A stretch of DNA of 55,023 nucleotides from an uncultured Chlamydiae bacterium (GTDB lineage: Bacteria; Chlamydiota; Chlamydiia; Chlamydiales; JAJFMA01). Within the stretch, counting starts at the first letter, position 1. Every line of letters begins with the position of its first letter. A program made the position numbers and the translations under genes. The stretch is from contig CAMFKD010000001.1 in the NCBI GenBank assembly GCA_945957095.1, positions 1 to 55,023 on the forward strand, written 5' to 3'. Positions 19,397 to 55,023 of the stretch are shown one piece after another. The notes under the pieces were generated by a model that was not told the DNA's origin, did not search any database, and saw only the letters and a list, made by a program, of their open reading frames with translations.

Positions 19397-20866
19397 TTGC
19401 TGACACAAGATAAAGAAACAATCTCTAGAATGCCTAGAGGACCTATTACTGCAACGCAAGAAGTGCTTAAAGTACAGGGAGGCGCCCAGCTTAAAGGCAC
19501 CGTCCGAGCTGCAGGCGCTAAAAATGCAATGACGAAACTGCTTGTCGCATCGCTGCTATCCGACAAACGCTGCATCTTCTACAATGTTCCCGATATCGGC
19601 GACGTTGAAGTGACCGTTGCCCTCTGCCGTGAGATTGGTGCTGACATCCAATGGGACCGCGCTAAAGGCGTCATGGAAGTCATCACGAAAGAAATTAAGA
19701 CTTCTTATATCCCTCAGAGCTTTTCAGGCGCTAACCGTATCCCTATCCTCATGATTGGGGCCCTCTTAGGGCGCACTGGCGACGACATCATCGTCCCTAC
19801 AGTAGGGGGCTGTAAAATCGGTAGGCGCTCCGTCGACTTTCACATTACCGCTCTAGAGAAGCTGGGTGCGCGCATTGAGTATCGTGAGATGCGTCGCGAA
19901 GGCGCTTATTTTGCTAGCGCTCATAATGGCTTAAAAGGTGCCGTCATCGAACTTCCCTTCCCTTCAGTAGGGGCTACTGAAAATACCATCTTGGCTAGCG
20001 TGACAGCTCGTGGCACTACCGTCATCAAGAACGCGGCTATCGAGCCGGAGATCGTAGATCTCATCCTCTTTTTGCAGAAACTCGGTGCGATCATTACCCT
20101 CGATGTGGACCGTACCATCCACATCCAAGGGACTAGGCGTTTCTATGAAGTGGAACACACTGTCCTTCCTGACCGCTTGGAAGCCGCCTCTTGGGGGATG
20201 GCTGCCATCGCTTCTAAAGGGAAGGTGTTAGTAGAAGGCGCCCAGCACCTTAATATGATTACTTTCCTCAATAAAGTACGGGAAGTCGGCGGCGGTTATA
20301 ACGTCAAGAGCGACGGTATCGAATTCTTTTATGATGGTCCGATGCAGGGTGGCTTGCACATTGAAACCGACGTTCACCCGGGGTTTGGGACCGATTGGCA
20401 GCAGCCTTTTGTCGTCTTGCTGACACAAGCAAGCGGCGCTTCTGTCGTCCATGAAACAGTCTATGAAAATCGCTTTGGCTACTGCCAAACGTTGGTGGAG
20501 ATGGGAGCTGATATTTCTCTATTCCGTCAATGCTTGGGGGGTAAGAGCTGTCGCTTTGCTTCGCAAGGACATCTACACAGTCTGGTCGTCAGAGGTCCAA
20601 CTCCCCTTACCGGCCGCGATATCACGATTCCAGATTTGCGTGCAGGCTTTGCCTATGTCATGGCGGCACTGCTCGCCAGCGATAGCAGCACGTTACGAGG
20701 CGTTCGTTACCTGGACCGTGGTTATGAAAATCTAGTGCCGAAATTGCAGGCGCTGGGGGCTGATATCGAACGCTCTCAGGCGGCAGTTCTCCCCGGGACT
20801 GAAGAGGCTGAAGGGCCCTATGGACTTGCTAACTTTTGTCAATCCCCCTTCGGTGAGCTAAGTTAA
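19397..20866 (+). CDS. murA: UDP-N-acetylglucosamine 1-carboxyvinyltransferase
   Basis: MurA-like throughout (AGAKNAMTKLLVASLL, VGGCKIGRRSVDFH, DRLEAAS, DLRAGFAYVMAAL). The start is TTG 19397 with AGGAG 7 nt upstream, and ATG 19430 is an alternative. Confidence 0.92.
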   Translation: MLTQDKETISRMPRGPITATQEVLKVQGGAQLKGTVRAAGAKNAMTKLLVASLLSDKRCIFYNVPDIGDVEVTVALCREIGADIQWDRAKGVMEVITKEIKTSYIPQSFSGANRIPILMIGALLGRTGDDIIVPTVGGCKIGRRSVDFHITALEKLGARIEYREMRREGAYFASAHNGLKGAVIELPFPSVGATENTILASVTARGTTVIKNAAIEPEIVDLILFLQKLGAIITLDVDRTIHIQGTRRFYEVEHTVLPDRLEAASWGMAAIASKGKVLVEGAQHLNMITFLNKVREVGGGYNVKSDGIEFFYDGPMQGGLHIETDVHPGFGTDWQQPFVVLLTQASGASVVHETVYENRFGYCQTLVEMGADISLFRQCLGGKSCRFASQGHLHSLVVRGPTPLTGRDITIPDLRAGFAYVMAALLASDSSTLRGVRYLDRGYENLVPKLQALGADIERSQAAVLPGTEEAEGPYGLANFCQSPFGELS

Positions 20867-24044: not shown

Positions 24045-24132
24045 ATGGACAATGGACATGGACGTAATGGACCTAATAGACGCCATGGACATTATAAACG
24101 TCTTTTTTGTCCATCATGTCTATTACGTCCAT
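24045..24132. repeat. array of ATGGAC-type hexamers with 9-bp phasing, arranged as an imperfect palindrome
   Basis: ATGGAC at 24045, 24052, 24058, 24067 and 24085. ATAGAC at 24076 and ATAAAC at 24094. A T6 run follows, then the inverse GTCCAT at 24109, GTCTAT at 24118 and GTCCAT at 24127. 24058-24072 is complementary to 24118-24132 (14/15). Confidence 0.8.
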
Positions 24133-24134
24133 GC

Positions 24135-25587: not shown

Positions 25588-26922
25588 TCACCAGCTGTGT
25601 TTCTTGCGAACAACCTCCCACTGCTTATCGTTAAACTCTTTTATTTCACATCCATAATAAAAATCATTATCATTCAAACCTGAGGCATACTGGTCATTAT
25701 CGTAGTTTCGCCATCCGCACTCTTTACGGGTACTATCTTCCCCTAAGAGGAATAATGTACCATTCCCTTCTTTCAGGCCATTGTGATGGTTGCCCTTCCA
25801 ACATCCATAAGGCCATTCATCTATCCCACAGCTCGTTCCTTCGCCATGCAGAGCCCGAGCTTCACTACTATTATAAACATAATCGCCTTCAGTGTGAAGG
25901 ATACGACCTTCATATACTTGCCCGTTGATCAATCGATTTCCATCGAAGTTGCCGGTTAGTAGTCTTTCAGGAAAATTGGTCTTGACGGTTGTGTTGATAC
26001 ATTGAAAATTTTTCACTGTTGCTTTGACTTCTGGTATATCATGGATGTCGAAATAGCTATTCTTAATATAGTTTCCGTCCTGAAGCCATACGATGGTAGC
26101 CTTTGGGGTTTCGAAGAAGAATTCGGATAGAAATTCAAAAAAACCCACACTTTTCACGCTGGTCGTTTCCCAAAGGAACGTACCATTAGCGATACAAAGA
26201 GGATCTCTCCGATGATCATAATCGATGCAGGAGAGAGAACCAACCCCAGATATCAGCTCATCATCGAGACAACTACCTGCGAATGTAGCGTGATAGACAT
26301 CTCCATCATATTTTCTGTAAGGAGGAACGAACGTAACAGTTTTGTTACACGGATAAGAGGTGTTTGTATTCGAGGGATCTGCTTGAGAAGAATGGGAGAG
26401 TGTACGCGAGCTCTGTGACTGACTGAAACTACTACCGCCAAAGGGCCACCATTGAGTCGGTGGGTCGGATTGAGAACTGGATGATGTTGGCGAGTCGTGT
26501 GAGACACCAGAACCATCTCCGCCACCACGAGAGGTAAGTCTTGCCGTTGGACGATACGCTAGACAGACGGTAGCTAAGCAAACAGCCCCAGTGGCAGCCA
26601 TGAGCGCTCGATATATGGTTGTATTGGCTTGTTTCTTCTTGTCGACAAGCTTTTCGACGCTTTTGACTGCGGGTAATATGGTAGCGATAGCTGGAGCGTG
26701 TGGAGTAGGTGGCTTAATGGCCTGAGCTGTTGTTGGTAGCTTTGATGCGGTTCTTTGGTCGAGAGAAATTCGCTTCATCACAGTAGTCGGCAGTTGTTGT
26801 CCGGCTCTTCTAACAGGCTTTACCCCTGGTTTTCCATGGCCTGCGGTCACAGGCCTTTTGGCTGATTGTGCTGGAGTACTAACCGTGGATGGGTGGAAAG
26901 ACGCTCTTACAGGTGTTGTCAT
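25588..26922 (-). CDS. paralog family member P1: basic N-terminus, single TM, Ser-rich linker, Cys-conserved MORN-like ectodomain
   Basis: 444 aa. MTTPVRASF..., QANTTIYRALMAATGAVCLATVCLAY (TM), an SSSSQS/WWPF linker, GNFDGNRLINGQVYEG...EGDYVYNS, and CWKGNHHNGLKEGNGTLF. Confidence 0.8.
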   Translation of the reverse strand: MTTPVRASFHPSTVSTPAQSAKRPVTAGHGKPGVKPVRRAGQQLPTTVMKRISLDQRTASKLPTTAQAIKPPTPHAPAIATILPAVKSVEKLVDKKKQANTTIYRALMAATGAVCLATVCLAYRPTARLTSRGGGDGSGVSHDSPTSSSSQSDPPTQWWPFGGSSFSQSQSSRTLSHSSQADPSNTNTSYPCNKTVTFVPPYRKYDGDVYHATFAGSCLDDELISGVGSLSCIDYDHRRDPLCIANGTFLWETTSVKSVGFFEFLSEFFFETPKATIVWLQDGNYIKNSYFDIHDIPEVKATVKNFQCINTTVKTNFPERLLTGNFDGNRLINGQVYEGRILHTEGDYVYNSSEARALHGEGTSCGIDEWPYGCWKGNHHNGLKEGNGTLFLLGEDSTRKECGWRNYDNDQYASGLNDNDFYYGCEIKEFNDKQWEVVRKKHSW

Positions 26923-27003
26923 TGATTGATTTTTTTGTGAAAATGATTGGGTGTTTTATATATTTTCATGTATAGCGTAATCGTTTTATTAGTTATGTGC
27001 TTA

Positions 27004-28332
27004 TTAATTATGTGAATAGCGTTTTACATTGCATGTATTCGTATTTTCAAAACCAGAAATCTGCATGTCAGAAGAGTACTCTCGCGATCCGCAGTCGTTA
27101 CGAGAATCGTCATTGTTTATGGAAAATAATGAACCTTTCCCTTCTTTCTTGCCTTTATTATGGTTCCCCTCCCAGCATACGTAACGGTAATGCTCTATGT
27201 TGCAGCTTATGCCTGTGCCATTCAGGAATCGAACTCCATTGCTATCATAAACATAGTCGCCATCGGTCATAAGATCTTGATACTTATATACCTTCCCGCT
27301 GGTCAATTGAGTTCCATTGAAGTTACCGACCAGCTTTTCACTATCCCAAAAATCGCTCCTAACAGTCGTATCGATGAGCAGATAGTCTTTGACTGTTGCT
27401 TCAACTTCTAACCTATCCCAAACACCATTATAACGATCGTAGCCGTCTAACTTGCGATAGTTTCCGTCTTGAAGCTGCACAGTGGTGGTTGGGGAGGAGA
27501 AAATCTGGAAGAGGGCTCCTAAAAAACCCTCCGCTTTCACAGAGGTTGTTGTGATGGAGAATGTACCATTAGCGGTACAGATATGATCGGTGTCATAAAA
27601 ATTAAGATCGTTGCAGAAGAGAGATCCTTCTGTGGATATCAGCTCGCCATTGAGGCAGGTACCATTGAATGTAGCATCATAGATATCTCGATCATCTCTT
27701 TTGTAAGGAGCGATGAACTTAACAGCTTTCGTGCACGCATAGGGATCAGATGTGTTTGTATTCCAGAGAAGTGGTTGAGAAGAATTCAAAGATGTTTGCG
27801 AGCTGTGTGACTGACTGGAACTACTGCTACTGAAGGGCCACCAGTAGTGGGTCGATGAATTCGATTGAGAACTGGACGATGTGTGCAAATCGTTTGAGTT
27901 GTCAGGGGCATTTCCGCTGTTATTAGCACGAGAACTGGAGTGGTCGTTATTGTTGCCCCCCCTTCTTAAGCGGAGATAGACGGCACCTAAGCAAGCGGCG
28001 CCAACGGTAGCCATGAGTGCTCGATACATCGTCGTATTGGCTTGTTCCTTCTTGTCGACAGGTTTCTCGGTAGCCTTAACTGCGGGCGCTATGGCAGCAA
28101 TAGCGGGGGTGTTTGGAGCGGGTGATTTAATGGTCTGAGCTGCTGGCAGCTTCGACGCAGTCTTTTGGTTGGTTGGGATTCGCTTCGTTACAGTAGTCGG
28201 CAGTCGTCGTCCTGCTCTCGCAACGGGTCGTCCTGCTAGCTTTCCGTTGGTTGTAGTCAAGGGGCGTTTGGTTGGTGGTACCAGTTTGCTCGCTGTGGAT
28301 GGGCGGAAAGATGCTCTTACAGGTGTTGTCAT
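27004..28332 (-). CDS. paralog family member P2
   Basis: 442 aa and collinear with P1. MTTPVRASF..., QANTTMYRALMATVGAACLGAVYL, a Ser/Asn-rich linker with WWPF, GNFNGTQLTSGKVYKY...DGDYVYDS, and CWEGNHNKGKKEGKGSLF. Confidence 0.8.
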   Translation of the reverse strand: MTTPVRASFRPSTASKLVPPTKRPLTTTNGKLAGRPVARAGRRLPTTVTKRIPTNQKTASKLPAAQTIKSPAPNTPAIAAIAPAVKATEKPVDKKEQANTTMYRALMATVGAACLGAVYLRLRRGGNNNDHSSSRANNSGNAPDNSNDLHTSSSSQSNSSTHYWWPFSSSSSSQSHSSQTSLNSSQPLLWNTNTSDPYACTKAVKFIAPYKRDDRDIYDATFNGTCLNGELISTEGSLFCNDLNFYDTDHICTANGTFSITTTSVKAEGFLGALFQIFSSPTTTVQLQDGNYRKLDGYDRYNGVWDRLEVEATVKDYLLIDTTVRSDFWDSEKLVGNFNGTQLTSGKVYKYQDLMTDGDYVYDSNGVRFLNGTGISCNIEHYRYVCWEGNHNKGKKEGKGSLFSINNDDSRNDCGSREYSSDMQISGFENTNTCNVKRYSHN

Positions 28333-28347
28333 GATTAACCTTTATTT

Positions 28348-35877: not shown

Positions 35878-37470
35878 ATGTCACAGTCGGTTCAACCTGA
35901 GTTTGGTAGATGGCAGCGGCTATTGTGGCCGGTGCATCGCTCCGAATGGAAGAAGCTGATTCCTATGCTGCTCATCTTCTTCCTCATCACCCTAAATTAT
36001 AATGTACTGCGTACGATGAAGGATTCCCTGATTGTGACGGCTAAGTCGTCAGGGGCCGAAGTCATCCCCTTCCTCAAGGTATGGGCGATGTTTCCGATGG
36101 CTATCCTCCTCACCTTCATCTATACACGCTTGGCCAATCGCTGGCCCCGCGAGATAGTCTTTTACATCATGATGGGCTTCTTCCTAGCCTTCTTCTTCCT
36201 CTTTGTCACGGTGCTCTATCCTTTCCGCGACTACCTTCACCCACATGCTTCTGCGGATTGGTTGCAAGAACAGTTGCCGCAGGGCTTCCGCGGCCTCATC
36301 GCGATGTACCGGTATTGGGCGTTTACAGGTTTCTATGCGATGGCGGAACTTTGGGGGGCTATCATGCTCTTCACCCTTTTCTGGGGCTTTGCCAACCAAA
36401 TCACACGTGTCGAAGAGGCCAAGCGTTTCTACGGATTGTTTGGCATTGGCGCTAATTTTTCCGGGATGGTTGCAGGGGTCATTTCCATGCTGCTTATCAC
36501 CTACGGTAAGCAGGTGCCTCTCTCATTCGTCCCAGAATCCGAACGATGGTTATTTCTGCAGCTTGTGCTGGTCCTAACTTGTGGATTGGGTGTCATCGCA
36601 CTATTCCGCTGGATGCACCGAGAAGTGCTGACTGATTCGCGTTTCTACGACCCTGAGAAAGCGGTGGAAGACAAGAAGGTGAAAGGACGCGTTTCGATGC
36701 GAGACAGCTTTGCCTATCTGTTCCGATCGCGTTATCTTCTCTGTATCACGATCATCGTCGTCGCCTATAACATCGTCATCAACCTCGTTGAGGTGGTGTG
36801 GAAGCATCAAGTGCGTGAGGTCTATCCGAATACCGACGAGTTTACCTATTACATGAACCAAGTGATGTTTTTCATCGGCTTGGTAGCGACATCAACAGCG
36901 CTATTTGGAACAGGCAACTTTATCAGGCGCTGTGGCTGGACGTTCACTGCGTTGATTACCCCAGTGGCGCTTCTCACCACAAGTGTTCTCTTTTTCTATT
37001 TCTTCTTCTGTAAGGAAGGGATGTGTTTTGCGGCTATTCCGGTTGGCTTAGGCCTTTCGACGCCAACGTTAGTGGTGTTTTTGGGTTCTCTCCAAAATTG
37101 TATCAGTCGGGCCGCCAAGTATTCTGTCTTTGATGCCACTAAGGAGCTAGCTTTTGTTCCCCTTGACAGCGAATCGAAGCTTAAAGGGAAAGCTGCAATT
37201 GACGGTGTCTGTTCTCGCCTGGGTAAATCGGGCGGTTCTGTCATCCACCAAGGCCTCCTCATGTTTTTCTCCACAATTGTTGCGAGTGCTCCCTATGTCG
37301 CCGCCGCTCTTTTGGTGATCATTGGCTTGTGGATTCTAGCTGTCACGGCTTTGGGCAAGCGTTTTAACGAACTCACGCAACAGCAGACCGCAGATGCTTT
37401 AGCCGCCGCGAAGGCATCGTTAGCAGAGAGTGATGATGTTGAAATGCAAGAGCAAAAGATAGGTGCTTGA
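35878..37470 (+). CDS. ntt: nucleotide transport protein (ADP/ATP translocase, NTT/TLC family), copy 1
   Basis: 530 aa from ATG 35878. A multi-TM protein with NTT hallmarks: NYNVLRTMKDSLIVTAKSSGAEVIPFLKVWAMFPMA, FWGFANQITRVEEAKRFY and KGKAAIDGVCSRLGKSGGS. Confidence 0.92.
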   Translation: MSQSVQPEFGRWQRLLWPVHRSEWKKLIPMLLIFFLITLNYNVLRTMKDSLIVTAKSSGAEVIPFLKVWAMFPMAILLTFIYTRLANRWPREIVFYIMMGFFLAFFFLFVTVLYPFRDYLHPHASADWLQEQLPQGFRGLIAMYRYWAFTGFYAMAELWGAIMLFTLFWGFANQITRVEEAKRFYGLFGIGANFSGMVAGVISMLLITYGKQVPLSFVPESERWLFLQLVLVLTCGLGVIALFRWMHREVLTDSRFYDPEKAVEDKKVKGRVSMRDSFAYLFRSRYLLCITIIVVAYNIVINLVEVVWKHQVREVYPNTDEFTYYMNQVMFFIGLVATSTALFGTGNFIRRCGWTFTALITPVALLTTSVLFFYFFFCKEGMCFAAIPVGLGLSTPTLVVFLGSLQNCISRAAKYSVFDATKELAFVPLDSESKLKGKAAIDGVCSRLGKSGGSVIHQGLLMFFSTIVASAPYVAAALLVIIGLWILAVTALGKRFNELTQQQTADALAAAKASLAESDDVEMQEQKIGA

Positions 37471-37542
37471 TCCTGTAATCAATTTTTATGTGGATAAAAA
37501 CTAATAGTTAGCATATAAATTTTCTTTTTCCTTAGAGGGATT

Positions 37543-39102
37543 ATGAGAAGTAAACAAAAGCATGAGTTTGGTAGGTTGAGGTCGATCCTCTGGCCTATCC
37601 ACCGCAGTGAAACGCGGATGATTCTTCCGATGTTTCTGATGCTCTTCTGCATTTGTTTTAACTACAGCGTGTTGCGCAATATGAAGGACGCTTTAGTGGT
37701 CACTGCTAAAGCTTCCGGTGCTGAAGTGATTCCCTTCATTAAGGTATGGGCGATGTTGCCCATGGCGGTGTTGCTGACGTTGATCTACACTAAGCTTGCT
37801 AACCGCTACAGTCAGGAAAAAGTCGTCTACATCCTCATCACAGGATTTTTGATCTATTTTGCTCTTTTTGCCTTTGTTCTCTATCCCAACCAAGACACCA
37901 TCCATCCGCACCAAACTGCTGAAGCGCTCGAAGCGATGTTGCCTGGTGGTTTTCGTTGGATCGTGGCGATGCTGCGAAACTGGACCTTTACTGCCCTCTA
38001 TGTCATGTCAGAGCTATGGGGTTGCATCGTTCTCACTGTTTTATTCTGGGGCTTTGCCAACGAGATCACCCGTATCGGCGACGCTAGACGCTTTTATGCT
38101 GTCTTATCCGTTGGGGGCAACCTGTCCGCGGTATTGGCTGGTCAGGTACCCACTCTCGTGATGGAAGCGACCATTGGCGATGCTGTTTTTATTCTCATGA
38201 GTATCGTCATCTTCTTAGGCCTTGTCACGATGGCGACTTTCCGTTGGATGAATGTTTACGTCCTCAATGACCGCCGCTATGATGAACTGCATGGACGCCG
38301 TCCCCTCGCCGAAGGTAAGGAGAAACCCAAACTCTCCATGCGTGAAAGTTTAGTGCAGCTAGCGGGTAGTAAATATTTGCTCTGCATCGCCGCTCTTGTG
38401 GTAGGCTATAATCTCGTCATCAACCTCGTTGAGGTGGTGTGGAAAGACCAGCTTAAGCAGCTCTACCCAAGCTTTGGCGACTACAACGCCTACCTCGGTG
38501 ATGTCACAACAGCTGTAGGCTTATTGTCGATGGCTCTATCGTTCCTCATCCCAGTCTTCATTAAGAAGGCAAGTTGGACGGGTACCGCTCTTATCACTCC
38601 TGTCACCATGCTGATTACGGGTGTGGGTTTCTTTACTCTCTTATTCTTTAAGGACGCCTTGCCACCTGAAAGCCTTTTCCTAGGCGCTACACCATTAGCG
38701 ATGGTTGTCTTCTTTGGCGGAGCTCAAAACTGCTTTAGCAAAGGATGCAAGTATTCGGTCTTTGATACTACGAAGGAGATGGCCTTTATTCCTCTCGATC
38801 ATGATTTCAAACTCAAAGGCAAAGCAGCTATCGATGGTGTCGGTTCCCGCTTTGGTAAATCGGGGGGGTCGCTATTGCATCAAGGGTTGCTTCTCATCTT
38901 CACAACACTAAGTGCTAGTGCTCCCTATGTTGCGGCTATCTTACTCGGTGTGATTGTGCTCTGGATCTTTGCTGTTAGGTCTCTGGGTGTGCAGCTGCAT
39001 ACTCTCGTTGCTAACCGCGGCGAAGCCATTGGCGAAGACCGTGAAAAACAGGTCATCGCTACAACCACAGCAGACACAGGGGCGGTTGCTGCGACGACTT
39101 AG
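37543..39102 (+). CDS. ntt: nucleotide transport protein (NTT/TLC family), copy 2
   Basis: 519 aa and collinear with copy 1: NYSVLRNMKDALVVTAKASGAEVIPFIKVWAMLPMA, FWGFANEITRIGDARRFY and KGKAAIDGVGSRFGKSGGS. Confidence 0.92.
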   Translation: MRSKQKHEFGRLRSILWPIHRSETRMILPMFLMLFCICFNYSVLRNMKDALVVTAKASGAEVIPFIKVWAMLPMAVLLTLIYTKLANRYSQEKVVYILITGFLIYFALFAFVLYPNQDTIHPHQTAEALEAMLPGGFRWIVAMLRNWTFTALYVMSELWGCIVLTVLFWGFANEITRIGDARRFYAVLSVGGNLSAVLAGQVPTLVMEATIGDAVFILMSIVIFLGLVTMATFRWMNVYVLNDRRYDELHGRRPLAEGKEKPKLSMRESLVQLAGSKYLLCIAALVVGYNLVINLVEVVWKDQLKQLYPSFGDYNAYLGDVTTAVGLLSMALSFLIPVFIKKASWTGTALITPVTMLITGVGFFTLLFFKDALPPESLFLGATPLAMVVFFGGAQNCFSKGCKYSVFDTTKEMAFIPLDHDFKLKGKAAIDGVGSRFGKSGGSLLHQGLLLIFTTLSASAPYVAAILLGVIVLWIFAVRSLGVQLHTLVANRGEAIGEDREKQVIATTTADTGAVAATT

Positions 39103-39497: not shown

Positions 39498-41240
39498 GTG
39501 GAAGAAATCAATGGGCAGCTATCACCCGAATTGTTATCCCAATCATTCTCCATCCAGTTGCAGCCATTAGAAAGGGAACGCGAAGAAGCCAATCCCGCCA
39601 TCACCTTCCCTGCTGTTTCGCCGTGGGATAACGGACCAGAGGGGTTAAAGTTTATAGTGCGACATGTTGTTCGGGGAGCGAATAGCTTGTCACACCTCGC
39701 GCAACGGTGGCTATTTGGAGTGGATGATAGCGCTGTTGAGAATCCAGACTCAGAGGGAAGGACAGAGCTGTGGTATGCTTGTGCTGCCGGTAAGTTAGAT
39801 GTTGTCCAAGAGTTGCTCCAGCGCGGAGCTAATCCCAACGCTGCCGATGTGTTTCAGGCCACTCCCTTTTTTGAGGCATGCCGTAATGGCCATGCAGAAA
39901 TTGTGCGGCTTTTGCTTCAATACGGTGCTGATATTGAAGTTTTTGATAGTTATCATTCGACCCCTCTCGCTTGGGCTAGTTTTAACGGCCACCTTTCAGT
40001 TGTTCAGTTGTTGGTGAAGGCCGGCGCTAAAGTGGATAGCCTAGATAACAACCGAGACACACCACTAGCTAATGCTTGTCGGATGGGTCGTCGCGATATC
40101 GCCGTGTTTTTATTAGACCATGGAGCTGATCTCAATCATGAAGACAACTACCATGGCACGGCACTCTTGATAGCATGTATGAGCGGACAACAAGAGATAG
40201 CGGAGCTATTGCTCGATCGTGGTGCCGATATCAATGTATTGGATAAGCTTGGCTATACCCCACTTCAGTATGCATTGCGTTCCTCTGTTTTTAAAGGAAC
40301 AGAGACATTAGCACGTCTGCAAGCAGGTGATGATGGCACTTCCGAGCGGATGATGCTCTCTAAGGAACTAGCCAACCGGTTTGGCATTTATGTCACAATT
40401 GATGTAAAGGGGCGCCCAATTCAGTTGTCTGGGTGGCATGTGGAAGTAGCGGGCAAGACATTACGACGAGAAGTTGATGCTTTTTATCCCAAGCTGACAG
40501 AGGCAATAGAGGTAGACGGTCGTTTATGGCATGGGATCATGGCACAACTGTCGCGGACAAGTCGTAAAAGGGTGAATGTTTTTGGGAAAAAAGGAATCCA
40601 AGAGGTCTTGTTGGCCGCTCAACACGCATTAACTGATACGACCATGACCACCCCATCTCAAGCACAACGCAAGCTAGAACAAACGGGATTGGTCGCGCTT
40701 CTGCTCTCGACAGGGACCCACGCTGTCGCTGTGGTGATTCAGAAAGTTGGTAACCTATATCGGATCGCCCGTGCCAATAAAGGTGATGGGAGTGAGCCAC
40801 ACCCCGGCATCCATCTCGACTTCTGTGCATCGGTCGATATCGATAAACTGTATCCTAAAGTCGACTTGTCATTTTTCACTACAGACTTTCGCCAGGATTT
40901 TAGGGCCACTAAGAATTCAACTTATATCCGACAAAAGTATCAAAAAACGGGAAATTGCAGCATTGCCAACGCCAATGGCGCTGAGCTAGCAGTACTTTAC
41001 CTTCTTCTGGAACCTCGTATCGGGCATGATGCGGCGTTGGAATTGGCGCAAGCCATCAAAAAACGGCGATGCGATATTTCGAGGACACATTCGTTAACTC
41101 AGTATCTAGATTTCTATGAAAAACACCCACATCTGCCAATCGAAAAACAGGTGTTACATACTCTCCTCAACAAACGAGTCACTGGAACACGCGAAGATAG
41201 ACAGCGCCGCGGGTTAATTAAAGGCTCTATCAGTGCTTAA
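39498..41240 (+). CDS. ankyrin-repeat protein with an unrecognised ~290-aa C-terminal domain (candidate secreted effector)
   Basis: 580 aa with a GTG start after an AT-rich region containing TATAAT (39462-39467). About five ANK repeats span aa ~88-262 (TELWYACAAGKLDVVQELLQRGANPN, TPFFEACRNGHAEIVRLLLQYGADI, TPLAWASFNGHLSVVQLLVKAGAKV, and so on). Confidence 0.85.
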   Translation: MEEINGQLSPELLSQSFSIQLQPLEREREEANPAITFPAVSPWDNGPEGLKFIVRHVVRGANSLSHLAQRWLFGVDDSAVENPDSEGRTELWYACAAGKLDVVQELLQRGANPNAADVFQATPFFEACRNGHAEIVRLLLQYGADIEVFDSYHSTPLAWASFNGHLSVVQLLVKAGAKVDSLDNNRDTPLANACRMGRRDIAVFLLDHGADLNHEDNYHGTALLIACMSGQQEIAELLLDRGADINVLDKLGYTPLQYALRSSVFKGTETLARLQAGDDGTSERMMLSKELANRFGIYVTIDVKGRPIQLSGWHVEVAGKTLRREVDAFYPKLTEAIEVDGRLWHGIMAQLSRTSRKRVNVFGKKGIQEVLLAAQHALTDTTMTTPSQAQRKLEQTGLVALLLSTGTHAVAVVIQKVGNLYRIARANKGDGSEPHPGIHLDFCASVDIDKLYPKVDLSFFTTDFRQDFRATKNSTYIRQKYQKTGNCSIANANGAELAVLYLLLEPRIGHDAALELAQAIKKRRCDISRTHSLTQYLDFYEKHPHLPIEKQVLHTLLNKRVTGTREDRQRRGLIKGSISA

Positions 41241-41260: not shown

Positions 41261-42922
41261 TCAGTTCGTTTGAATATAAGCCATAGCTTTCAAGCCAGAT
41301 GCAAAGCCTTCTTCAGAAGTCACAGTATGCGAGATCAGATCGCCTAACGCTTCTGTGATTTGTACGGTCAACTGTTTAGTGGAGATGGTCTGCTCGCCAT
41401 AAACACCGTCGTAGATGACATTGAGAAGCTGCAACAACTTGCGCCGCGTCTCTTTGCTTTCTGCTTTGGTAAAGTCTAACTTATTCAAGACCTTGAGAAG
41501 ATTCGGCATCAACGCACTAGTCAGCTGCCGTTGCTTTGCTGTTAGAGCGTTGCCCGAGAAGAGTCGGATGACTATGGCTGCCGTTTTACCCGTAATATAG
41601 CGCGCAGGCCAGGTCGTCAGCCATCCTAAAGAGAACTTGATGCTGCGTTCATAAGAGAGGAGGCGGCGCAACGTCGGAACAGTGTCCAGCGCAAACTTTG
41701 TATAGCTGGAAGGGGGCTTGCCAACCTTAGCCTTCAAACGTAATTGTCGTGCTTTCTCTATGCCATGGACGAGGTCTGCAACTCCCGCTACAACGATCGG
41801 GGCATCAGGGAGGGCCCAGATGTTCTGGATTGTTGCACTGTCAGGCAGAGCATTGACTTTGTTGGTTTCAAGGGCAAACTGCTTCTTGAGTTCATTGAGG
41901 ATTTTAGTTTTCTCTTGCGGAGCCATCGCCTGATCGATCGGCATCATGTCAAAAAAGCGCTGAAGAATATTCACCAAGAGTTTGCACATCTCCGCTGATC
42001 GTTTGCCACCAAGCTGCTTTTTTGGGGTGCCCTTAGCTAGGGCATTTTGGTCAAACCAGCCGTCGAGGGTCCGGTATGGTGATTGATCAATAGATGATGC
42101 TACCTCGTCAAAGAGAGGATCGAGAAGAGCGATATCCTGTTTGCTGTCGGCAGGAAGATGTTCGTAAAGGAATGTGCGCAGAAAAGTGCTGAGCGCAGGA
42201 CCCATGTGATTTCTTAAGTTGTGCAGCGCGGTCCCAAAGGTGATGGGCGGAGGTTGTACGTCTGGTGTCAATGCGATAGCCGGTTTCGACGGCCCCATCA
42301 GCTTTTGGCGCATTACCTGCTCTGCATGCTTACCACGTATCTGCAGCTCGCTTAAGTTGATGTGATTGATCGACTTTCGCCAGCCTATGAAGACCATGAC
42401 CCTATTAAACACAGCTGCAATGGTATCAAGCAGACCACCAAAGAAGCCGCGTCGGCCTGACAGCGCAAATTGGCCAGTGGCCACTCGGTCGATCGTTTGA
42501 GGCAGATCCTTCATATGCCCGCGAAACTCTCGCGTTGCACTATTGATTGCCTGTGCTTTAACACTAAGAGCACTAGCAGTTCCTGGCAGGTAGCCCGATA
42601 GAACAGAGAGCTGGCTTATTATGCTTTTAGCGAACGCTTTGACTTCGCTTCTAGTCTCCAAAACAGCCCGTTCAGCAGTCTGACGTAGCCCTTTGAGCTC
42701 ACGAATATGTTTGTCGAGAGGAGAAGCTACCTTTTGGTCGGGACGTCTGGCAGCATTGGCTTGTTGGATAGCAAAATCCAAAGCCACCATCGCTTCTTGC
42801 CGTATCCGCTGCTGCGCTGCTGTCGCACCTGCTAGAGCACCACGCACTGGACTCATCGCAATGTCCATCTGTTCGTTGGACGATGCATGTCTAACAAGAG
42901 GTATCTTGGGAATGCTATTCAT
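41261..42922 (-). CDS. hypothetical protein, no recognisable domain (candidate effector)
   Basis: 553-aa uninterrupted ORF with AT-rich flanks. It has one hydrophobic stretch (FFGGLLDTIAAVFNRVMVFIGW). I recognise no motif. Confidence 0.7.
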   Translation of the reverse strand: MNSIPKIPLVRHASSNEQMDIAMSPVRGALAGATAAQQRIRQEAMVALDFAIQQANAARRPDQKVASPLDKHIRELKGLRQTAERAVLETRSEVKAFAKSIISQLSVLSGYLPGTASALSVKAQAINSATREFRGHMKDLPQTIDRVATGQFALSGRRGFFGGLLDTIAAVFNRVMVFIGWRKSINHINLSELQIRGKHAEQVMRQKLMGPSKPAIALTPDVQPPPITFGTALHNLRNHMGPALSTFLRTFLYEHLPADSKQDIALLDPLFDEVASSIDQSPYRTLDGWFDQNALAKGTPKKQLGGKRSAEMCKLLVNILQRFFDMMPIDQAMAPQEKTKILNELKKQFALETNKVNALPDSATIQNIWALPDAPIVVAGVADLVHGIEKARQLRLKAKVGKPPSSYTKFALDTVPTLRRLLSYERSIKFSLGWLTTWPARYITGKTAAIVIRLFSGNALTAKQRQLTSALMPNLLKVLNKLDFTKAESKETRRKLLQLLNVIYDGVYGEQTISTKQLTVQITEALGDLISHTVTSEEGFASGLKAMAYIQTN

Positions 42923-43044
42923 GTAAACTTGATTGTTGTTTGTTGAATATTGATTTTACAATACAATTATTATAAATTCAATTCAATTAACTTAATCTTA
43001 ATAACATGTCAGCAAGGAAGGATAGCAACAGCGCGCGTCCAACC

Positions 43045-43211
43045 GTACATGTTCACCTAGTCCAGCAAAACTGAAAATGATGAGATTAAGCGACATATGA
43101 AAACGAAAAAACCGAGTAAATAGCCAGAAAAGCCTATTTACGAGGTTTTTTCGATTTTCAGATGCGCTTAAGATCTTCGTTTTCAGTCTGCTGGACTAGG
43201 TGAACATGTAC
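43045..43211. mobile_element. MITE-like non-autonomous element: 23-bp perfect TIRs, 8-bp target-site duplication
   Basis: The left TIR GTACATGTTCACCTAGTCCAGCA (43045-43067) is the exact reverse complement of 43189-43211. The arms extend imperfectly to about 35 bp and the interior is itself palindromic. GTCCAACC flanks both ends directly (43037-43044 and 43212-43219). There is no ORF inside. Confidence 0.75.
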
Positions 43212-43963
43212 GTCCAACCGGCTGAGGCCCCTTGGATGTTGACCGGAAAGCAAGAGAGCTCAAATCCATGCGAAGGCAACATATCTAGACAATGCAGCTT
43301 TTCCAAATGGCAGTAGCCAATATCTCGGCCAACTCTATGACCTTCCCAGATAATGGAGGGGTCCCCATGTTCCGCGTAGCGCTTTGCGGTATGAACAAAG
43401 GGAGCATCCCAGCTCCAGGCATCGGTACCCGTAACCCGCACCCCACGTTCCAACAAGAAAAGAGTGGCTTCTCTGCCCATTCCACAGCCAGCAGAGAGAT
43501 ATTCCTGTGTGCCAAATAGTTCTCCAGCACGCGTGTTGACAAGGACAATATCCAAAGATTGCAGGGTGTAGCCAATGCGTTTTAACTCTTGTTCGACATC
43601 CGATGCCGTTGCGACATATCCGTCAGGAAGGTGACGAAAGTCAAGCTTGACACCTGGAGCAAAGCACCATTCCAAGGGTACTTCGTCGATCGTGATGGCA
43701 CGTTTGCCACCATCCATGGTGGAAGCATAGTGGTAGGGAGCATCGAGATGTGTCCCATTGTGTGTGTATAGAGTCAACTGCTCAACAGCCCAGCCTTCAC
43801 CATCGGGCAGATCGCTCTCCTTTAGACCAGGAAAAGACGCACACATCTGGGCGACCGTCTCTTGATGGCTTAAATAAGTCACTTGAGCAGGCATCCAAGG
43901 TGGGTCACTGTACGCGGAATTACTAATGGGGATCGAGAGATCAATGATACGACGCTTCTTCAT
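43196..43963 (-). CDS. cyclase-family protein (arylformamidase / kynurenine formamidase-like), C-terminus altered by the MITE
   Basis: 255 aa. HNGTHLDAPYHY matches the HxGTHxDxPxH metal-binding motif of the cyclase/KynB family. The last four codons and the stop (YMFT*) are encoded by the element's TIR. Confidence 0.78.
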   Translation of the reverse strand: MKKRRIIDLSIPISNSAYSDPPWMPAQVTYLSHQETVAQMCASFPGLKESDLPDGEGWAVEQLTLYTHNGTHLDAPYHYASTMDGGKRAITIDEVPLEWCFAPGVKLDFRHLPDGYVATASDVEQELKRIGYTLQSLDIVLVNTRAGELFGTQEYLSAGCGMGREATLFLLERGVRVTGTDAWSWDAPFVHTAKRYAEHGDPSIIWEGHRVGRDIGYCHLEKLHCLDMLPSHGFELSCFPVNIQGASAGWTYMFT

Positions 43964-44040: not shown

Positions 44041-45594
44041 ATGAATACAGTGTCGCAAACAGGTGTTACAACAGATGTAAAAACTTCTGTATGGCTAGAG
44101 TATCAAAAAACAGCATTAACAGCTAAAGAAATAAGTAGAGAGCAACTGCGAGATGCTGTTGGCGCTGTCGTAGTGGATTTACAAAATAATTTATTAGCCG
44201 ACGATAAAAAATATGTGCAGCGTCTGTTGCGTTGTGTGACCCGGCTTTCGGCGATCGCCTATAACGAGGATAGGGATCTCTATCATCGAATGGCCGCTGT
44301 TGTTACGGAACACTTTTCTACTCTAGCCCCTTACCTGCCAATGGACCTGCGGCTTAAGACAGAGGATGGTAGTACGGTTGCGACATCTGCGTTAGCGTTG
44401 ATGCGAGTATCGGATGTCTTTGCCAAAATGTTTGGATCTCAATTTGGAGAGAGTAAGGCATTTATCGACCGCTATCCGATCGGGCCTTTATATAAAAAGA
44501 TGAAGATCGACATTGGCGGCATTTCTAGTGAGCAGCTATGGCTGTTAGTGGACTGTATCATGGGTAGAGAGCTAAATCCATTTAGTATGGAAAAAAGGAC
44601 AGTCCATGAGTTTGACAAAACCATGGACTATTGGAATATAGGGGAAACGGATCGTAGAGAATTTCAAGATCGGATACGGTGTGCTCTCTTTCGTAACGTC
44701 CATGTTGCTGCTTTCTGGCATGATGTTTGCCCTGATCTCTCTTCGAATGATCCCGAACGGGTTGAACGAGCGGTGGCCCAACTCGCAAATGACACAACAG
44801 TAGACTATCTCCTCACCCTTATTTGCATCTTCGAAGATTTGGCGAAGATAGAAGATATGTTTCCACTATTGCAGCGTATCCTTTCCAGAATCCATGTTGA
44901 TTGGGGAAGCGGAAGCCCAGAAGCCATCCAGATATTGCTCAGTCGGTTGCATCGCCTAGGACAGTCGAGACTTTGCGATGCTTATTCCGATTATGCGTTG
45001 GAACAGTTAAGTCGGAAGCAGTCGGTCCCCGAATTATTGGAGTTGGTCGACTGTCCAGAGCGGTTAATAGGCCATTCCTTACAGTCGATTCTTTCACAGG
45101 CTACTGTGGATTGGTCCAGTGGGACCGTAGAGCAGCGCAGAAGGTTGCTAGACCTTATGGATCAAATAGGGAATCCTTTGGCAGTCATGCGTTATTTTGA
45201 CGGAGTGGTTGGGGAGTCCTCTAGCGAGCAATTACTAAGAATTCTAGAAAGGGAAACTCTGTTGCCTAATCTCACAGAGGAAGAATCGCTCATCTATGCC
45301 AAACGATGCATTTGGGATCACCTGCGCCAGTGGTTTCGAGCTATCGCTGATGATTGGGATCACGTCAGCACTCATGTTAAGATTCGAGGTGCCAAGCAAA
45401 CGCTAAGGCGTAAGCTTCTCGATTCAACCATTGTAAGTAACTTAAAGCGGTTTGCGGCTGTGGGTTCATCTCTGCGCCCCTGGAACTTTCATGGACGAGA
45501 ACTGGATGGATTTCCTAAGGCGGCACAAGAGTGGTTGATGAATGCGATTAATGGAAAATTTGGCATTCACAATGTACCCTCTACAGGTAGCTAA
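44041..45594 (+). CDS. BTB/POZ-like domain protein (eukaryote-like, candidate effector)
   Basis: 517 aa. Residues ~100-200 (DLRLKTEDGSTVATSALALMRVSDVFAKMFGSQFGESK...IDIGGISSEQLWLLVDCIMGREL) follow the BTB consensus pattern. The C-terminal part has an internal duplication (ILSRIHVDWGSGSPEAIQILLSRLHRLG / ILSQATVDWSSGTVEQRRRLLDLMDQIG). Confidence 0.55.
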   Translation: MNTVSQTGVTTDVKTSVWLEYQKTALTAKEISREQLRDAVGAVVVDLQNNLLADDKKYVQRLLRCVTRLSAIAYNEDRDLYHRMAAVVTEHFSTLAPYLPMDLRLKTEDGSTVATSALALMRVSDVFAKMFGSQFGESKAFIDRYPIGPLYKKMKIDIGGISSEQLWLLVDCIMGRELNPFSMEKRTVHEFDKTMDYWNIGETDRREFQDRIRCALFRNVHVAAFWHDVCPDLSSNDPERVERAVAQLANDTTVDYLLTLICIFEDLAKIEDMFPLLQRILSRIHVDWGSGSPEAIQILLSRLHRLGQSRLCDAYSDYALEQLSRKQSVPELLELVDCPERLIGHSLQSILSQATVDWSSGTVEQRRRLLDLMDQIGNPLAVMRYFDGVVGESSSEQLLRILERETLLPNLTEEESLIYAKRCIWDHLRQWFRAIADDWDHVSTHVKIRGAKQTLRRKLLDSTIVSNLKRFAAVGSSLRPWNFHGRELDGFPKAAQEWLMNAINGKFGIHNVPSTGS

Positions 45595-46923: not shown

Positions 46924-47125
46924 GTAAATGTTCACCTATGTCACCATTCGTGCCCGCGCCCGTGTGCATTAAGCTAAACAACATTTTCACCAGCAGAGAT
47001 CAGTGAGATCTATGAGAAGGATTGAGATAGTGTTAGAATATTGGGTTGAGACCTTTCATTTCTTCTCCCTAATCTCATTCCTCCTCACTGGTCTCTGTGG
47101 CTCAGTGGTGAATTATGCAACAAGC
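46924..47125. repeat. another copy of the modular repeat (modules A-B-C plus an F module)
   Basis: Reads gtaaatgttcacctatgtcaccattcgtgcccgcgcccgtgtgcattaagctaaacaacattttcacc... The end, ctcactggtctctgtggctcagtggtgaattatgcaacaa, is the reverse complement (with mismatches and a gap) of 54944-54978. Confidence 0.7.
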
Positions 47126-47228
47126 CCACCCCATGAACATATACCCACGTTTTCGCCTCGCAGCGAAGTTAAGTTTATTTTCAACCTAACTCGTTTCCAT
47201 GCTAAGGTGAGGCAAAGCGAGGGGATAA

Positions 47229-54584: not shown

Positions 54585-54940
54585 GTACATGTTCACCTAT
54601 ATTCCGATTCGTGCCCGCGCCCTTACCCGGAGTCCATAAATCAGACCCGGGTACGCACACATATGCATTAAGCTAAGCGACATTTTCACCACAGAGTGCA
54701 CAGAGAACACAGAGAGGGTAATGAAACAAACACAATACCTTCGTAAAAATCGAAAAAAGATCTCTCATTTCCTTCTCTTTCCTCTGTGTTCTCTGCGCGC
54801 TCTGTGGTAATAAATTCTTAAATATTAGTAGTTAATTTTTATCGTTCATATCGTTATATCATTCCTATTGTTTTCTCAAGTCTTCTGCATACATAGCTTA
54901 ATGCATATTGGCACGCACACGGGCGCGGGCACGAAAAAAC
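54585..54940. repeat. contiguous, most complete copy of the modular palindromic repeat (A-B-C-D-loop-D'-E-C'-B')
   Basis: gtacatgttcaccta (A). ttcgtgcccgcgccc at 54608-54622 pairs with gggcgcgggcacgaa at 54921-54935 (B/B'). gcattaagcta at 54665 pairs with tagcttaatgc at about 54895 (C/C'). CACAGAG x3 (54690, 54699, 54708) faces CTCTGTG/CTCTGCG/CTCTGTG (54782, 54791, 54800). A TATCGTT-type array sits at 54840-54872. An F-module sequence continues to the window end. Confidence 0.8.
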
Positions 54941-55023
54941 GGTGTTGTTGCATAATTCAGCACTGAGCCAGTGAGATCAGCAGCAATTTCTGCTAAATAT
55001 TAACTACTAATCTTTAGGAATTT

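Follow-up and report, generated by a model that had tools for sequence, protein, structure and literature searches.

We analyzed a stretch of 55,023 nt from an uncultured Chlamydiae bacterium (GenBank assembly GCA_945957095.1, contig CAMFKD010000001.1, forward strand), hereafter referred to as the window, in which a 167-bp non-coding element with perfect terminal inverted repeats (TIRs) lies across the 3' end of a gene of the cyclase/formamidase family. The host genome encodes an ankyrin-repeat protein as well as two nucleotide transporters of the TLC type, and it shows synteny with metagenome-assembled genomes (MAGs) of the Chlamydiales. At the locus itself, the element is flanked on either side by one copy of a short direct repeat, a target-site duplication (TSD), and beyond its far end lie, in frame, the former last codons of the open reading frame (ORF). 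The components are, in window coordinates:

43196-43963, minus strand: the present cyclase-family gene (PF04199), 255 aa, ending ...GWT-YMFT and a stop (tail GASAGWTYMFT)
43045-43211, unstranded: the non-autonomous element (MITE, for miniature inverted-repeat transposable element), 167 bp, its limits set by TIR and TSD
43045-43067, plus strand: left TIR, GTACATGTTCACCTAGTCCAGCA, 23 nt (24 nt counting C43044)
43189-43211, minus strand: right TIR, the perfect complement of the left one and the source of the Y-M-F-T codons and of the TAG at 43196-98
43037-43044, unstranded: left TSD copy, GTCCAACC, direct repeat
43212-43219, unstranded: right TSD copy, GTCCAACC, on the gene strand inside the G-W-T codons
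43009-43035, minus strand: orphaned original 3' end of the gene, RAVAILPC codons plus TGA (43009-11), cut off from the ORF by the element

A preliminary description of this DNA, made from the letters alone, had given the positions of the element and its TSD and the length of its TIRs, and upon recomputation every one of them was correct. The inverted arms (43044-43067 and 43189-43212) span 24 nt and are 100% complementary, and the 23-nt TIR sequence occurs at only two sites in the window, which are the two ends of the element (shuffled sequences lead to an expectation of 0.00). The TSD can be read as part of a longer direct repeat, CGTCCAACCG, which is identical at 10/10 positions between 43036-43045 and 43211-43220, because the C and G neighboring the target equal the end bases of the element. 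All six reading frames of the element contain stops, the longest open stretch being 50 codons, and the element is near-palindromic from end to end, matching its own reverse complement at 82% over 170 nt. When transcribed from the gene strand, its RNA is predicted to fold into a hairpin of -109.5 kcal/mol, as compared to -43.9 ± 3.6 kcal/mol for shuffled sequences (z = -18.5). A search of Rfam at gathering thresholds returned no family for the element, nor for any other part of the window. The complete element was present in identical form in two independent metagenome assemblies (L001 and L002; ERZ12289969 and ERZ12289974), and outside the TIRs its arms agree at only about 82%, which rules out a fold-back artefact of assembly.

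Because a perfect TSD exactly abuts perfect TIRs, the element has the anatomy of a bacterial MITE. It displays three of the five features that define this class: a length below ~800 bp without a transposase gene, TIRs of at least 10 to 15 bp, and a TSD together with a demonstrable empty site. The other two features are several to many copies per genome and an autonomous partner element with matching TIRs in the same genome, for which the observations are given below.

The boundary between gene and element reads GGT TGG AC/G TAC ATG TTC ACC TAG on the gene strand (with the slash at the junction), such that the final four codons and the stop derive from the TIR. Removing 175 bp in silico, in any of four registers, yielded a protein of 259 aa that ends in ...GASAGWTRAVAILPC and stops at the TGA at 43009-43011, with a reconstructed empty-site junction of ...GGTTGGACGCGCGCTGTT.... 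This excision confirmed what had been proposed for the C-terminus, namely, that YMFT and the TAG come from the TIR and that RAVAILPC is restored once the element is taken out. The host protein matches PF04199 with E = 7.5e-37 and retains all residues of the metal motif, with the invariant HxGTHxDxPxH kept as HNGTHLDAPYH. We found the exact 255-aa protein in 6-7 contigs, all from one clonal population.

Homologs and the uninterrupted site

The cyclase family is highly conserved, with the best 120 of 8000 matches being 68-75% identical to the window protein. We compared the C-terminal tails of 17 retrieved homologs with that of the window protein (18 sequences). All 17 homologs end in ...(S/G)(A/G)GW(T/C)RAVA(I/V/L/M)..., where R, A, V, and A each reach a conservation of at least 90%; among the 18, only the window protein deviates, carrying YMFT in place of RAVA. 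Two of the homologs lie in loci that share a conserved gene order with the window (UvrD - PutA - NamZ - ... - cyclase - ... - TLC - TLC): one in a genome labeled 'Chlamydiales bacterium' (L016, GCA_030679955.1) and one on a 3.9-Mb contig with five TLC transporter genes and a BTB-domain gene (L017). At both loci the site is uninterrupted, reading GGC TGG ACG CGC GCA GTA GCG ATT in L016 and GGG TGG ACT CGG GCC GTT GCT ATG in L017, and the restored codons of the window align with both (GGT TGG ACG CGC GCT GTT GCT ATC). Since 17/17 homologs keep WTRAVA and the two syntenic orthologs have an uninterrupted site, the insertion is real and is derived relative to the orthologs. The preliminary description had proposed that the reconstructed C-terminus be compared with homologs; this comparison gave RAVA in every case and element-free orthologous sites in two related Chlamydiota, and its core reading, that a non-autonomous element with TIRs and a TSD swapped the C-terminus of the cyclase, is thereby supported.

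The position of the hairpin exactly at the 3' end of the gene would also be expected if nothing had inserted here and the hairpin were a native 3' terminator or stabilizer, with YMFT as the natural end of the protein. The homolog tails, two of them from syntenic loci, speak against this, as do the missing codons, which follow in frame directly past the element, and the stem, which has no T-run after it; we give this explanation next to no credence. For the same lack of a T-run, a role of the hairpin as a canonical intrinsic terminator was rejected.

Related repeats and the length of the duplication

The element had earlier been linked to larger modular repeats through its terminal 15 nt. We find this link to be real and wider than was noted, since what the repeats have in common is a terminus of the type GTAyATGTTCA. 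The form GTAnATGTTCA (GTANATGTTCA) has 5 sites in the window, against 0.08 expected, and the terminal 15-mer of the MITE has 4 matches in total, against 0.06 expected, with an exact one at 54585 and one with 1 mismatch at 46924; a further occurrence, at 29504, has lost 1 nt. Upon including ~26 kb from extensions at the loci L009, L019, and L010, which brings the sequence of this genome to ~81 kb, about ten related termini with at most 2 mismatches were found. The repeats are:

46924-47144, unstranded: 221-bp composite repeat with the same termini, GTAAATGTTCAC... and ...ATGAACATATAC; flanks match at 5/8
54585-55023, unstranded: left part of a 582-bp composite repeat (in full at L009:12234-12815), start GTACATGTTCACCTA, end ...CCCCATGAACATATAC; flanks match at 7/8
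29504-29870, unstranded: decayed composite repeat, left terminus GTA-TGTTCACCTATATTCC with a 1-nt deletion, right end degenerate
30862-31103, unstranded: composite repeat with the right terminus only (...GTAAACATGTAC), its modules 88-97% identical to those of the element at 54585
About 1782-1895 of the window (in a repeat region at 1715-1895), L009:17890-18039, and L019:19364-19612: further mosaics bounded by the terminus

Behind the conserved 11-12 nt, the subterminal modules differ between repeats (CCTAGTCCAGCAG, CCTATATTCCGATTCGTGCCCGCGCCC, TGGGGT..., and CGGGATAAAAATCC...), and the interiors of these intergenic mosaics consist of interchangeable hairpin modules (TTCGTGCCCGCGCCC/GGGCGCGGGCACGAA, CACAGAG...CTCTGTG, and GCATTAAGCTAAGCGACATTTTCACC). 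The copies are 70-97% alike and most of their ends have decayed, while the right end of the L019 element (19589-19610) still matches the MITE TIR at 20/22 positions. Of the repeats with this terminus, the 167-bp element alone is pristine, and the others are decayed. A broader proposal, which we put forward tentatively and hold to be possible rather than probable, is that the 167-bp element is the youngest member of an undescribed, lineage-specific superfamily of mosaic non-autonomous elements, driven by a transposase, in which only the terminus of 11-12 nt (GTAyATGTTCAC) and an 8-bp duplication would be common to all and the hairpin modules would be exchanged.

The composite repeats also bear on the length of the duplication. 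Taken alone, the MITE copy permits a TSD of 6 bp (with a 24-nt TIR), 8 bp (23-nt TIR), or 10 bp (22-nt TIR). The flanks of the 582-bp composite repeat, TCATAGCC and TCATAGTC, directly abut GTAC... and ...ATAC and match at 7/8 positions in the 8-bp register, for which our own binomial estimate of the chance of at least 7/8 matches is ~4e-4, and those of the 221-bp composite at 46924-47144 match at 5/8 in that register. Because of these matches, an 8-bp TSD is the most economical reading. Of the 8-10 bp given in the preliminary description, the 10/10 direct repeat with its ambiguous ends stood, and the register of the composite repeats narrows the duplication, most simply, to 8 bp.

One of these repeats coincides with a discrepancy between assemblies of the same clone. 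The contigs containing L009:12234-12815 and L010:11428-11960 are identical up to the CACAGAG/CTCTGTG hairpin module downstream of UvrD and then diverge: beyond the shared module, one of them continues into adh_short and glycosyltransferase genes and the other into RlmN, PAP2, and LexA genes. The cause of this divergence is a repeat-mediated rearrangement or else a contig that is chimeric.

Proposed mobilization, copy number, and age

A perfect direct duplication that exactly abuts perfect TIRs marks insertion through the staggered cut of a DDE-type transposase. We consider it very probable that the present arrangement arose when a MITE that was mobilized in trans, and that shares its terminus with a family of larger mosaic repeats, inserted into the end of the cyclase/formamidase-family gene. 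A transposase supplied in trans would have recognized the GTACATGTTCAC... ends of the element, made a staggered cut, most likely of 8 bp, in the target GTCCAACC within the codons Gly-Trp-Thr 248-250, and joined the element there, after which repair of the gaps would have produced the flanking duplication. Translation would then run from Thr250 into the TIR, adding Tyr-Met-Phe-Thr and the TAG, whereas the residues Arg-Ala-Val-Ala-Ile-Leu-Pro-Cys of the conserved last beta-strand would be left downstream, untranslated. For the transposition itself, we infer a DDE-type cut-and-paste or copy mechanism, mobilization in trans, and an element that is present in multiple copies.

As to the source of the transposase, the earlier statement that none is encoded in the window was borne out for ORFs of at least 150 aa, in which Pfam scans and the precomputed Pfam annotations of the contigs gave no transposase domain. 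The 8-bp duplication and the GTAA/GTAC ends are reminiscent of IS66, a resemblance that is no more than a lead. The inverted repeats of IS66 usually start with 5'-GTAA-3' and its TSD is 8 bp, and IS6, ISL3, IS256, IS1595, and IS1 likewise make duplications of 8-9 bp and stay among the candidates here. For comparison, the termini of the element family start with GTAC, GTAA, or GTAT, and its best-supported duplication is 8 bp.

One gene annotated as a transposase was found outside the window:

L019:18393-19334, ~8 kb left of the window start: PDDEXK_2 gene, 'PD-(D/E)XK nuclease family transposase' (E = 4.7e-60)

The composite repeat with the 20/22 TIR match adjoins this gene immediately downstream. 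The Logan contig L021 ends ~120 nt into the gene, which may be multi-copy. As the partner transposase of the element the gene is unsupported, given that it has no TIR on its upstream side and that the PDDEXK_2 family is not known to make TSDs.

A different kind of origin is suggested by the hairpins themselves. The element is essentially a single long hairpin, and the related repeats are mosaics of hairpin modules that resemble bacterial interspersed mosaic elements (BIMEs), as would be expected if a hairpin-recognizing, non-DDE system were at work, such as that of repetitive extragenic palindromes (REP) and their associated tyrosine transposases (RAYT) or one of the IS200/IS605 type. Alternatively, recombination among the mosaic intergenic repeats could have brought the hairpin here; the flanking repeat would be incidental in either case. 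The multi-copy-looking PDDEXK_2 gene next to a composite repeat fits with such an origin, as do the L009 and L010 contigs, whose difference downstream of a shared module points to recombination or mis-joining at repeats. A perfect duplication of 8-10 nt abutting perfect TIRs would, however, arise by chance with a frequency of only ~4^-8, elements of the HUH/Y1 type have neither a duplication nor TIRs, and a second element keeps a 7/8 duplication in the same register. We thus regard this origin as highly improbable. As a class assignment, REP/BIME or an IS200/IS605-type element was rejected in view of the clear TIR and TSD; the window likewise gave no domain of a Y1 transposase.

Assembly behavior provides a hint at copy number. 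A Logan contig, recorded for 5 samples, stops 29 nt into the element, and a metaSPAdes contig stops 54 nt into it, which is ~k-1 for k = 55. In the related composite repeats, Logan contigs likewise stop after 28-44 nt. Such breaks are how a de Bruijn graph behaves at sequence that is common to other loci and are suggestive of further copies of the element.

Several observations weigh against mobilization of a multi-copy MITE in trans. No second full copy was found in the ~81 kb. In the contigs of GTDB representative genomes, an 18-mer of the TIR gave 3 matches only (Crocinitomicaceae, Rhodobiaceae, and Rhizobiales MAGs), which we treated as chance; two of these three share extended surrounding sequence and look homologous to each other. 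The TIR was not found in JGI metagenomes (20-mer, 0 matches) or in IMG/VR (0 matches), and blastn searches with the element and the TIR against PLSDB plasmids and phages gave nothing or noise. No insertion sequence (IS) with matching ends was detected in the window, the extra loci, or the scanned collections. The contig breaks may in part be due to the inverted repeat itself or to the low coverage of 5-7x, and, lastly, no empty-site allele was found within the species, all samples being clonal. The source organism as such is absent from the scanned genome, metagenome, and virus collections. Two further searches were likewise negative: a degenerate pattern of the commoner composite-repeat end gave 0 matches in JGI metagenomes, and the six-frame-translated element gave no match as a protein query, a search that is underpowered for tails of less than ~30 aa.

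The single copy in ~81 kb and the lack of any copy in the scanned public collections are what one would expect if a full-length IS had landed here and lost its interior in place, leaving a dead single-copy scar, the TIR and TSD of which would look identical to those observed. Yet the element is palindromic from end to end (82% over 170 nt), as is typical for fold-back MITEs and unexpected for joined IS interiors. Its arms have diverged internally, in contrast to the perfect TIR and TSD, and this combination suggests an old family and a young insertion. Contigs from independent assemblers, furthermore, terminate 29 and 54 nt into the element, which is how assemblers behave at multi-copy sequence, and one composite repeat matches the TIR at 20/22. 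Such an IS remnant is hence unlikely, and we favor the insertion of a mobilized MITE.

With regard to the age of this MITE insertion, contigs from at least 6 samples are 99.96-100% identical to the window and represent one clone without polymorphism (the runs holding the organism are SRR12456164, 65, 71, 72, and 73). By accession, these runs belong to one series with zebrafish stool metagenomes from a study that reports Chlamydiota MAGs (PMC9240224), which makes zebrafish stool a plausible source. The 259-aa form was not found in the protein database, where the next match after the 100% one is 75% identical. The perfect TIR and TSD are the only basis for dating, and they suggest that the insertion is fairly recent.

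Among known small elements, Correia elements (Correia repeat enclosed elements, CREE) and enterobacterial repetitive intergenic consensus (ERIC) sequences are hairpin elements of ~100-170 bp with TIRs of ~25 nt, which are co-transcribed with their neighbors and can alter gene ends and mRNA processing. Correia elements duplicate TA, whereas the present element is flanked by a non-TA duplication of 8 (to 10) bp, GTCCAACC. A Correia element, with its TA duplication and Neisseria-specific TIRs of ~26 bp, was rejected on the basis of this duplication and of the lack of an Rfam or nucleotide match. Rickettsia palindromic elements (RPEs) are palindromic, lie in frame in protein genes, are translated through, and have no clear TIR or TSD. 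They share with the present element that the protein of an obligate intracellular bacterium is altered; the element described here does have a TIR and a TSD, and an RPE was rejected because translation halts after 4 codons at the TAG in the TIR.

Bacterial MITEs in general are non-autonomous IS derivatives of 50-800 bp with TIRs and TSDs of 2-10 bp (PMC10969869, PMC11602168). The present element is like them in size, in its perfect TIRs and TSD, in its fold-back structure without coding capacity, and in being located at the end of a gene or between genes, and it has no sequence similarity to anything in the collections that we searched. Closest in habit is QMITE2 of Coxiella burnetii, also from an obligate intracellular host, which is 150-190 bp long, with variable direct repeats of 7-11 nt, located mainly in 3' untranslated regions and between genes, present in ~50 copies, and containing a GTAG REP that is targeted by IS1111 (PMC5896051). 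We saw no such relation to IS1111 and no sequence similarity here. MITECca01 of Cardinium is likewise a MITE in a repeat-rich intracellular bacterium, its TIRs being common to other repeats; there the parent was identified as ISCca4 of the IS982 family (PMC9769881), whereas none was found here. The open literature that we searched gave no account of MITEs in Chlamydiota, although environmental chlamydiae are known to be rich in repeats and transposases (PMC2878342).

Consequences for the gene and the genome

The tail that the gene has lost consists of Arg-Ala-Val-Ala-Ile-Leu-Pro-Cys. Its Arg aligns with an Arg of a distant relative in the PDB, isatin hydrolase (5NNA/5NNB). In an AlphaFold (AF2) model of one syntenic ortholog (P0008), the last beta-strand is made up of residues 249-256, with a predicted local distance difference test (pLDDT) score of 65 overall and 86 for the local block. 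By this model, the last strand of the window protein would now read W-T-Y-M-F-T, shorter than before and without the Arg. Outside the tail, the gene body carries 3 singleton substitutions. This number is within the range of the other homologs (0-5) and gives no support to relaxed selection on the gene body. Since substitutions are not in excess and the metal motif is kept, the gene is either still useful or only recently damaged. Whether the enzyme is truly impaired is roughly an even call.

The insertion may matter for transcription as well. Downstream of the cyclase gene lie:

41261-42922, minus strand: co-directional gene for a protein of 553 aa without a Pfam family
42953-42981, minus strand: promoter-like site of the 553-aa gene, a consensus match only, in native spacer untouched by the insertion

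Any read-through transcript from the cyclase gene would carry a very stable, long 3' hairpin ahead of the 553-aa gene.

The genes around the cyclase, at 39498-41240 (plus strand), 41261-42922 (minus strand), and 44041-45594 (plus strand), are lineage-specific; in the two relatives, the syntenic loci either lack them or have different genes. They comprise an ankyrin-repeat protein, the C-terminal half of which (~300 aa) is of unknown type, as well as two proteins that exceed 500 aa and lack a Pfam family, and the neighborhood appears to be a hotspot for gene gain. Further along, at 35863-39102 (plus strand), lie two tandem TLC paralogs of the ATP/ADP translocase type that are 50% identical; the corresponding place in L017 holds five in a row. 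Three tandem paralogs at 25588-29406 (minus strand; 444, 442, and 352 aa) are 39-50% identical to each other and have no Pfam family; with their proline/serine-rich N-termini and Cys/Trp/Gly-rich C-terminal halves, they look lineage-specific and are possibly secreted. In the gap between the genes for ArgRS and a DEAD-box helicase, at 24057-24133, there is a 25-nt inverted repeat (84% complementary, 27-nt spacer), which is unrelated in sequence to the MITE family.

The insertion at the cyclase gene raises no new mechanistic question. Changes to gene ends through MITE insertion have been well described for Neisseria, Coxiella, Rickettsia, and others. It does provide a case in which a small non-coding transposon remodeled the end of a protein in an obligate intracellular bacterium, replacing a near-invariant motif with four residues encoded by the element. 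An annotator would score the 255-aa gene as intact, although it is possibly a fresh pseudogene or encodes an altered enzyme. More broadly, the locus presents an environmental chlamydia with active or recently active non-autonomous elements and with dense mosaic repeats that fragment metagenome assemblies.

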